From: Gemmatimonadales bacterium
GTDB lineage: Bacteria > Gemmatimonadota > Gemmatimonadetes > Gemmatimonadales > GWC2-71-9
DNA: 64,000 nucleotides
Direction of reading: 5' to 3'
Assembly (NCBI GenBank): GCA_035553475.1
Contig: DATNDQ010000062.1
Span: 360 to 64,359, forward strand
Positions 51,813-53,461 of the stretch are shown here, piece after piece (within the stretch, counting starts at the first letter, position 1; every line of letters starts with the position of its first letter). The position numbers and the translations under genes were made by a program. The notes under the pieces were generated by a model, which was given only the letters and a program-made list of their open reading frames with translations, was not told the origin of the DNA and ran no database searches.

Positions 51813-52919
51813 CTATCGCAGAAATGGAGCGATGACGATCCACGTCAACACCGCGACGCGCACCAGCGCGAAGCGGGGGCCCTTCCCGGCGGCGCCGATC
51901 GCGCCGACCACCACCGCGGCGACGAACGTGTGAAACCAGCCGGACCAGTGACTCGGAGTCACCAGGGGACTGCCGGAATGCGAAGCCACCAGGATCGCGA
52001 GGGCGGCGATGATGGTGACGGCCTGGCCGGGCGTGGACGGTAGAGCCACCGCGGTGAAGGCCGCGAGAGCGACCACGGCGGATCCGTACGGGCCGACGAA
52101 GTGAAAGGACGCGACGGCGACCACGACCAGGGCGACCGTCACCATCCGTTGGTTGATCAGCGTGATGCCCGCGCCCAGGACGACGCCTGCGAGCCCTGCC
52201 AGCAGCGTGGCTTGGGGGGACAACGCGTCTTCATGGAGTCCCAAGGCGACCGGGTCGAGTCCCGTCGCGGCGAGGGCCACGAGGCACCCGACCACGATGG
52301 CTCCCGTCACCATCCCGGCGCGCGATGACTCCTTCCACAGCAACCCGACCGCTCCTCCGACGATCCCGGTCGTGGCGACCAGCATGGGGTACGCCACTCC
52401 ATCCAGCCGATTCGCCGCAAAGGGCGTGGCGGCCGCGACCACCAGGGCACCAGCCGCCGCGAAGACGCCGGCGTCGGAAGCTTCGGGGACCGTGCTGCCA
52501 CTCTTCTTGCTCGCCGAAATCACCGCGGAGCCGAGGGCGAAGGCCGCGACGAGCTGGGCGAAGAGCTTCCAGCCGCCGTCGTCCATCCCGGCGGCCGAGC
52601 CGAAGAGCTCGAAGACGAGTCCGAGGCCGAGGAGGGAGGTACCCCAGGCCGACAGACCGAGGATCCGGGATTCGATCCCGAAATCCGCCATCCATTGAAC
52701 GGTCAGGGCGGCGACGGCGCCGAGGGCGAAACTGGCGCCGGTGCGGGCGCTGATCAGTCCGTCGAGCACCACGAGCGCGACGATGGCGATCAGTCCGGGC
52801 TCAACATACGTGCCCAGCTCCGGGCGTCGTGTGGCGGCGCGCAGGGCGACGAGGGCGGGGATGAGGGCCACCGCACCCCCGAGGATGGCGATCTCAGGGA
52901 ACCAGGGCACCAGGTTCAT
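51813..52919 (-). CDS. Hypothetical polytopic membrane protein
   Basis: 368 aa, with about 10 Ala/Gly/Val-rich hydrophobic helices. ATGA overlap with the pth stop. No family recognised. Confidence 0.65.
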   Translation of the reverse strand: MNLVPWFPEIAILGGAVALIPALVALRAATRRPELGTYVEPGLIAIVALVVLDGLISARTGASFALGAVAALTVQWMADFGIESRILGLSAWGTSLLGLGLVFELFGSAAGMDDGGWKLFAQLVAAFALGSAVISASKKSGSTVPEASDAGVFAAAGALVVAAATPFAANRLDGVAYPMLVATTGIVGGAVGLLWKESSRAGMVTGAIVVGCLVALAATGLDPVALGLHEDALSPQATLLAGLAGVVLGAGITLINQRMVTVALVVVAVASFHFVGPYGSAVVALAAFTAVALPSTPGQAVTIIAALAILVASHSGSPLVTPSHWSGWFHTFVAAVVVGAIGAAGKGPRFALVRVAVLTWIVIAPFLR

Positions 52920-53461
52920 GCGGGGGTCTCACCCCGGAGCCAGCGCTCCACGGCGTCGACCATCTTCGGCATCGCTGCTTCGATCAGGTCCCGTTGCTCC
53001 GGGTCCGCCGGCGCGAGGACGTAGTCGGCCCAGTCACCCACGCCTTCGGGCAGGGGACCGACACCGATGCGGAGGCGCGCATAGCCTGGGGATTGGAGGG
53101 CGCCTTCGATGCTCTTCAAGCCGTTGTGGCCACCGGCCGACCCGTCGAGCCGCAGGCGAAACGTGCCGGCGGCGATGCGGAATTCATCGACGAGCACGAG
53201 CAGGTCGCTGGCGGGATTGAACGTCGGATCCGCGCGGAGCGAAACGAGTGCCGCCCCCGACCGGTTCATGTACGTCTGCGGCTTGAGGATGCGTACCGGC
53301 ACGCCTTCCACTTCACCTTCGGAAACGCGAGCGCGCTCACCACGCCGGAAGGGGCCGAACCCCCACCGCGCAGTGAGCGCGTCCGCCAGCCAGAACCCTG
53401 CGTTGTGGCGCGTCGCCTGATACTCTTCGCCCGGATTCCCCAGGCCGACGACGGCGCGCAG
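52916..53461 (-). CDS. pth: Peptidyl-tRNA hydrolase (CTG start)
   Basis: The ORF track begins at GTG 53311. My translation upstream in the same open frame gives (L)[50 protein letters not shown], which is the conserved Pth N-terminus including the catalytic His. The only possible initiator after the rplY stop is CTG at 53461. Confidence 0.85.
   Translation of the reverse strand: [181 protein letters not shown]

Follow-up and report, generated by a model that had tools for sequence, protein, structure and literature searches.

A probable CTG initiation codon for the peptidyl-tRNA hydrolase gene behind rplY in a soil Gemmatimonadales genome

We analyzed a 64,000-nucleotide (nt) stretch of a Gemmatimonadales genome (assembly GCA_035553475.1, contig DATNDQ010000062.1, positions 360 to 64,359 of the forward strand), here called the window, with a focus on the start of its peptidyl-tRNA hydrolase gene, pth. 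The source is a metagenome-assembled genome from soil, 97% complete, with 66.5% G+C and 211 contigs. Within the window, pth occupies 52916..53461 on the minus strand, including its TGA stop codon (52918-52916), and lies directly downstream of rplY, which encodes ribosomal protein L25/Ctc (240 amino acids [aa]; 53465..54187, minus strand; Pfam PF01386 and PF14693). Judging from this sequence and its relatives, pth very probably starts at the CTG codon at 53461-53459, because the frame offers no alternative start, the codon is homologous to canonical starts in other genomes, it is constrained to NTG, and the codons downstream of it are translated. The explanation that we favor as a whole, and consider likely, is initiation at this CTG by ribosomes supplied through termination-reinitiation from rplY.

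The pth frame and its missing canonical start

On the minus strand, the 3' end of rplY reads ...AAG CCC AAG GGA TAA, with the stop codon at 53467-53465. A lone spacer codon, GCT (53462..53464), follows, which is unconserved among relatives, and then comes the CTG (53459..53461), so that the two genes lie on the same strand with a gap of 3 nt. After the CTG, the pth frame continues CGC GCC GTC GTC GGC CTG GGG AAT CCG GGC ... ACG CGC CAC AAC, and 49 codons pass without a canonical start. The first ATG, GTG, or TTG in the frame is a GTG (Val51; 53309..53311), which would give a product of 131 aa. A first-pass annotation of the window had described this arrangement, and the open reading frame listing and the minus-strand sequence confirm its account: the frame is open up to the rplY stop, only GCT and CTG follow that stop, and there is no ATG, GTG, or TTG between 53461 and 53311.

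The 181-aa product read from the CTG matches Pfam PF01195 with an E value of 3.8e-51, its residues 4-177 aligning with model positions 2-173 of 183, and chains of Pth in the PDB align over residues 2-179 (best 3v2i, E value 1.6e-35). The motifs GLGNPG, TRHN, YMNRSG, VDE, and GGHNG are all conserved in it. His19, Asn9, Asn66, Asp92, and Asn113 are present and align with the matching motifs in 3v2i; we take His19 to be the counterpart of E. coli His20, and the four other residues, in the same order, to be those of E. coli Asn10, Asn68, Asp93, and Asn114. The codon for the catalytic histidine of the TRHN motif (CAC, 53405..53407) is upstream of the first canonical start, as the first-pass annotation had pointed out in assigning the N-terminus of Pth to this part of the frame. 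A start at GTG 53311 would drop Pfam model positions 1-49, including Asn9 and His19, and leave a match to positions 50-173 only. Given the CTG start, the full-length family match and the catalytic residues predict a bacterial peptidyl-tRNA hydrolase.

The segment that precedes GTG 53311 evolves as coding sequence. The ratio of nonsynonymous to synonymous differences (pN/pS) for codons 2-51 was 0.05-0.33 in comparisons with congeners and family members, which is no higher than in the rest of the gene. Because these codons differ mostly synonymously, as expected under purifying selection, they are therefore translated. The genome, at 97% completeness, gives a single PF01195 match, with no second pth, and no PTH2-type (archaeal-type) hydrolase was found in it. 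The same junction, a stop codon followed by NNN and CTG CGC GCC GTC GTC GGC, occurs in all six other congeneric assemblies that cover it.

Start codons across Gemmatimonadota

We gathered pth loci from 40 relatives, 200 phylum-wide genomes, 25 further stretches, and a GTDB-wide contig scan, which together gave 156 distinct loci. The homologous start codon was normally taken five codons before the Gly of GLGNPG, with a neighboring NTG used in a few loci. This codon was CTG in 89 loci, 1-18 nt after the rplY stop and exactly 3 nt after it in 64; TTG in 26, mostly 3 nt after the stop; GTG in 19, at -1 to 123 nt; ATG in 18, mostly at 86-132 nt, with three at -1, 30, and 35 nt; CTC in three; and another codon in one. 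Gemmatimonadaceae mostly use ATG and other families of the class mostly GTG, and the family of the window and its sister family use CTG or TTG. The comparison of start-codon usage that the first-pass annotation had suggested supports its claim that a functional Pth requires CTG initiation or another non-canonical start; the homologs of this CTG in orthologous genes are ATG, GTG, or TTG.

A Pth tree computed without the start-codon column places every CTG genome in a single clade of 117 rows (support 91). CTG is on all deep branches of this clade, within which TTG arose approximately nine times, GTG once, and CTC once. Two loci inside the clade, L134 and L140, have switched to GTG at distance 0 (TAA GTG and TAG GTG) and so have regained a canonical start without leaving the coupled position.

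We compared the start position with two other conserved Leu codons, which served as controls within the tree-defined clade. The start position had CTG in 88 rows, TTG in 22, CTC in three, and other codons in four, and only a single third-base change was placed on the tree; each of the four other codons has an NTG one or two codons upstream, adjoining the stop. The Leu of GLGNPG had CTG in 69 rows, CTC in 45, and TTG in three, with 17 third-base changes, and a later conserved Leu underwent 21. CTC is accordingly found in 3/117 rows at the start position versus 45/117 at the Leu of GLGNPG. The codon that precedes CTG is hypervariable, with 30 forms and 61 changes on the tree of the clade, and the second codon before CTG is a stop in 87/115 loci. 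The codons after CTG retain R/H/K-A-[IV]-V with synonymous variation. A boundary between unconstrained and coding sequence that falls exactly at a codon constrained as NTG is the signature of an initiation codon.

Gemmatimonadaceae appear to express pth in another manner than the clade of the window. Their loci with ATG at 86-132 nt after rplY (L072-L077, L147, L148, L151, L154, L155, and L158-L162) have a conserved, pyrimidine-rich pth leader (CGCCCCGCGCGTCTTCCC...) without Shine-Dalgarno (SD)-like pairing (median duplex energy +1.2 kcal/mol).

Coupling to rplY and competing explanations

In the mechanism that we propose, the CTG at 53461-53459 would be read as formylmethionine by the ordinary initiator tRNA, giving a normal 181-aa Pth. 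A ribosome or 30S subunit that finishes L25 would restart at the nearby weak CTG on the same transcript, possibly with help from the purine-rich codons at the end of rplY. With a weak start behind a very busy gene, Pth output would then be a small and constant proportion of that of L25; from this we infer a dosage rationale, with little Pth made for much L25. CUG initiation, like that at AUH codons, has been measured at approximately 1-2% of AUG initiation in E. coli reporters (Hecht et al., bioRxiv 10.1101/063800), and reinitiation drops steeply with distance, being nearly gone by 20-40 nt and needing overlaps or very short gaps (PMC10666635).

All 89 CTG starts are within 18 nt of the rplY stop. 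That CTG is always close, and ATG mostly some 90-130 nt away, agrees with a weak start fed by terminating ribosomes, and the contrast between short and long distances is suggestive of coupling. Neither a promoter nor a terminator would fit into a gap of 3 nt, and no site resembling either was predicted in 51700-55400, the region that spans the genes from prs, upstream of rplY, to the membrane-protein gene downstream of pth. On balance we lean toward most pth initiation depending on rplY translation; the distance pattern gives good reason for the coupling that the first-pass annotation had proposed.

The single tRNA-Met detected has the features of a standard initiator (CAU anticodon, GGG/CCC stem), and the tRNA-Leu(CAG) is an unremarkable member of class II. 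A special initiator tRNA for CUG was considered and rejected, as no initiator-like tRNA that reads CUG is among the 34 tRNAs recovered.

The strongest alternative keeps the CTG start but makes it independent of rplY: free 30S subunits would bind an SD-like AAGGGA, and the 3-nt gap would reflect operon compaction and SD spacing. AAGGGA is a purine run formed by the final two sense codons of rplY (AAG GGA; 53468..53473, minus strand), 6 nt before CTG, and its duplex with the genome's own 16S tail (GGATCACCTCCTTTCT, a canonical anti-SD) is estimated at -5.3 kcal/mol. An SD-like duplex of -4 kcal/mol or better is found at the start in 75% of CTG loci, and inhibitory RNA structure is absent, with no significant folding in 131 nt around the pth start (z = -0.7). 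However, 56% of control windows in the purine-rich tail of rplY are SD-like as well, so the motif is not specifically placed. Independent initiation is further opposed by the absence of any CTG start (0/89) more than 18 nt from the rplY stop, as against ATG starts mostly at 86-132 nt, and by the other CTG starts of this genome, which sit in CTGA overlaps, a classic reinitiation geometry. We therefore consider it unlikely, although not negligibly so. An SD contribution to pth initiation is possible under either explanation, and the two are inseparable on this evidence because the tail of L25 is SD-like throughout.

The Lys/Glu/Ala/Gly tail of L25 (53468-53520, minus strand) consists of 18-nt repeats, and AAG GGA is its only purine run at SD distance from the CTG. 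Masking of the pth start by RNA structure was also considered; the 131-nt folding result gives it no support.

Several observations weigh against CTG initiation coupled to rplY. The sample includes no cultured organism with the CTG form. TTG and CTG both encode Leu, so their alternation by itself would fit an internal Leu equally well; that reading is disfavored because the third base is constrained and a stop lies one codon upstream. Few independent events underlie the difference between short and long distances, as the genomes with ATG and a long spacer are essentially one clade. The SD-like run before CTG is unspecific, since the whole Lys/Glu-rich tail of L25 is purine-rich. Finally, one subclade of the sister family, f3, makes Pth in a way that reinitiation at CTG does not explain.

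This subclade comprises ten loci from three genera (L023, L024, L031, L163-L165, L167, L168, L171, and L172), in which the start-position codon is CTC (five loci), ACC (two), ACG, ATC, or GTC, and in none of which is there an NTG near the pth N-terminus in any frame. The junction reads GAG GAG TAG/TAA (GCG) GCC GCG GCC xxx AAG CTC ATC GTC GGC, with a conserved GCC-GCG-GCC spacer; pth shares its frame with the rplY stop in 10/10 loci, and this stop is never TGA. The only conserved near-cognate codon is the ATC two codons before GLGNPG, and the K/R-L codons that precede it show synonymous variation, as translated codons would. Candidate explanations are an AUC start, reinitiation that is independent of a start codon, and an L25-Pth fusion produced by readthrough. 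A broader possibility is that ribosomes of this Gemmatimonadales branch, having just terminated, need no strict start codon, or none at all, to restart, the CTG of the window being an intermediate stage of this relaxation; we hold this to be distinctly improbable.

Readthrough could also be invoked for the window, in which case Pth would be a C-terminal extension of L25 and pth would need no start codon. The rplY stop and pth share a frame in the window and in 98/114 genomes of the clade, as they do in all ten loci of the subclade of f3 that lacks NTG, and low-level readthrough of the very abundant L25 could yield enough Pth. Yet in 16/114 genomes, on several separate branches, the stop is out of frame (stop-to-CTG distances of 1, 2, 4, 5, 7, 10, 11, 13, and 14 nt) and the CTG is still kept. 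The type of stop also varies freely (TGA 44, TAG 29, TAA 14), that of the window being TAA, normally the tightest terminator, and the third-base constraint on CTG is left unexplained. Readthrough in the window thus has very little probability in our estimation.

A further reading places initiation farther inside the frame, either with the 131-aa product of GTG 53311 as the only one or with an inner non-canonical start such as the CTG of GLGNPG at 53443-53441. In its favor, GTG 53311 is the first canonical codon and is called by several pipelines, and one NCBI-derived relative is recorded as 175 aa, beginning at the Leu of GLGNPG. Against it, Asn9 and the catalytic His19 are missing from the 131-aa form, the genome has no second pth to compensate for such a loss, codons 2-51 are under strong purifying selection, and the Leu codon of GLGNPG is CTC in 45/117 relatives, so it is no general start. 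We give an inner start hardly any credence. A sequencing or assembly error that hides a canonical start, or a pseudogene, might be suspected in a metagenome-assembled genome of 211 contigs, but the junction recurs in six independently assembled congeners, CTG is present in 89 distinct loci, and the single-copy gene has an intact frame that evolves under purifying selection, which brings the probability of either close to nil. The two findings that the first-pass annotation had named as able to overturn its reading, a sequencing error at the junction and another pth paralog, are contradicted by these congeneric junctions and by the single pth of the genome.

Other CTG starts, annotation, and gene neighborhood

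We screened the whole assembly in two ways for further CTG starts. The first screen used a codon score to find long coding-like leaders without a canonical start and gave eight candidates, of which only pth and folC were convincing; the others look like shadow frames and were rejected. The CTG start of folC (contig C69, plus strand, 1812-3038; locus L183) overlaps the accD stop as CTGA, and its GTNGKGS P-loop is 45 codons into an 85-codon stretch without ATG, GTG, or TTG. This CTGA is kept in the genus, in three further genera, and in family f3; in other relatives, ATG, GTG, or TTG occupies the matching start region. The second screen, for CTG codons that adjoin upstream stops, gave 30 candidates, with coding-like extensions in 10/14 CTGA junctions versus 2/16 of the other spacings. 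Only folC and an M16 peptidase gene had Pfam backing in this screen; the candidates also included an AI-2E transporter and a SpoIIE/GAF gene. The M16 peptidase gene (contig C69, minus strand, index 3357 of the reverse complement) has a CTGA junction with its upstream gene, and its Peptidase_M16 domain begins eight residues before the first canonical start, which makes a CTG start likely for it.

Within the window, a further CTGA junction (37074-37077, minus strand) precedes a gene for a 767-aa secreted protein. Only a start at CTG 37077-37075 gives this protein a plausible signal peptide (LSSRAAVIRGILLGTVLASGTAHA); with the first canonical start, a GTG 15 codons in, the signal peptide would be too short. 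The NTGA (-4) overlap occurs at this junction and at accD-folC, but not at pth, where TAA-GCT-CTG leaves a gap of +3. By these comparisons, pth is probably one of several CTG-initiated coupled genes in this genome and stands out from the others by its +3 gap, where they have a -4 overlap.

Databases annotate near-identical Pth genes inconsistently, as 181 aa (NCBI), 175 aa (NCBI-derived), and 131 and 128 aa (Logan, ENA, and JGI). The exact 181-aa sequence of the window's Pth, with an initial M, is in NCBI nr, and NCBI's pth in the congener GCA_035763205.1 has the CTG as its first codon, 3 nt past the stop of rplY; this call agrees with the start inferred here from homology and third-base constraint. 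Logan, ENA, and JGI have truncations of 131 or 128 aa, the 131-aa form being in Logan and ENA. The prediction of the first-pass annotation that callers limited to ATG, GTG, and TTG would truncate the enzyme therefore holds for these collections, and GTG 53311 is the false start that yields the 131-aa form. In such pipelines, an entire clade of soil bacteria is credited with a form of this essential enzyme that lacks the catalytic histidine. Mis-annotation of this kind also affects folC and probably several other genes of these genomes, and it distorts pangenome, essential-gene, and metabolic reconstructions.

No paper that deals with a CTG start of pth, or with start codons in Gemmatimonadota, turned up in our literature search. 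The closest precedent is in Deinococcus-Thermus, where N-terminal proteomics identified a conserved CTG start of rpsL, an ATC start of dnaA, and a CTG start of Deide_03051 (Baudet et al. 2010, PMC2830850); a CTG start of plasmid RepA in E. coli is among the cases cited there. Like Deinococcus rpsL, pth is an essential housekeeping gene with a clade-wide CTG that is its only possible start and that gene finders restricted to ATG, GTG, and TTG mis-annotate. The start of rpsL was established by proteomics and that of pth in Gemmatimonadales is predicted from sequence comparisons; the CTG of pth, moreover, follows a ribosomal protein gene, 3 nt past its stop.

Termination-reinitiation coupling is described for stop/start overlaps, such as ATGA and TGATG, and for very short gaps (Huber et al. 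2019, PMC6728339; PMC10666635). The pair rplY-pth resembles such pairs in that its genes are co-directional and a few nucleotides apart, in the probable dependence of the second gene on ribosomes that finish the first, and in the short distance required. Usual coupled pairs have a -4 or -1 overlap with ATG or GTG, whereas pth has a +3 gap, is mostly in frame with rplY, and uses CTG. As we read it, the case is one of a conserved near-cognate start in a translationally coupled pair, and both CTG starts and coupling are already established.

Near-cognate starts are also known to keep expression low or regulated, as do the AUU codons of E. coli infC and pcnB, and the weak codon of infC acts as a sensor for IF3 autoregulation. 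The CTG of pth would similarly be a weak codon on a low-abundance protein that plausibly sets a low output. Unlike at infC, feedback is not evident for pth, and the gene ahead of its weak codon is very highly translated.

The gene order prs-rplY(ctc)-pth is widespread in bacteria, for example as prs-ctc-spoVC/pth in Bacillus subtilis. The window has the same order and strand, with pth directly downstream of the L25/Ctc gene. Compared with the ATG of Gemmatimonadaceae, 86-132 nt after rplY, the gap in the clade of the window has collapsed to approximately 3 nt, with CTG or TTG as the start. The phylum accordingly offers an evolutionary series, from ATG with a long spacer to GTG and then to TTG or CTG with a 3-nt spacer, and a deeply conserved natural case of a weak start directly behind a very highly translated gene. 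It would be a good system for start-codon choice by reinitiating ribosomes and for protein ratios set by operons. No principle is changed by it; its weight is practical, for annotation, and its conceptual novelty is modest.

The run of genes begins with prs, encoding ribose-phosphate pyrophosphokinase (54200..55153, minus strand; Pfam PF13793, PF14572, and PF00156), and continues through rplY and pth to a membrane-protein gene. The start of rplY is ATG 54187, with a strong AGGAG Shine-Dalgarno sequence upstream (54196-54192). The gene after pth (51813-52919) encodes a multi-pass membrane protein of 368 aa that had no significant match in Pfam, and its ATG overlaps the TGA stop of pth as ATGA (52916..52919, minus strand). 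The genes rplY, pth, and that for the membrane protein thus form a chain of close or overlapping junctions, and the identical order of pth and the membrane-protein gene is called in the congener's NCBI record.

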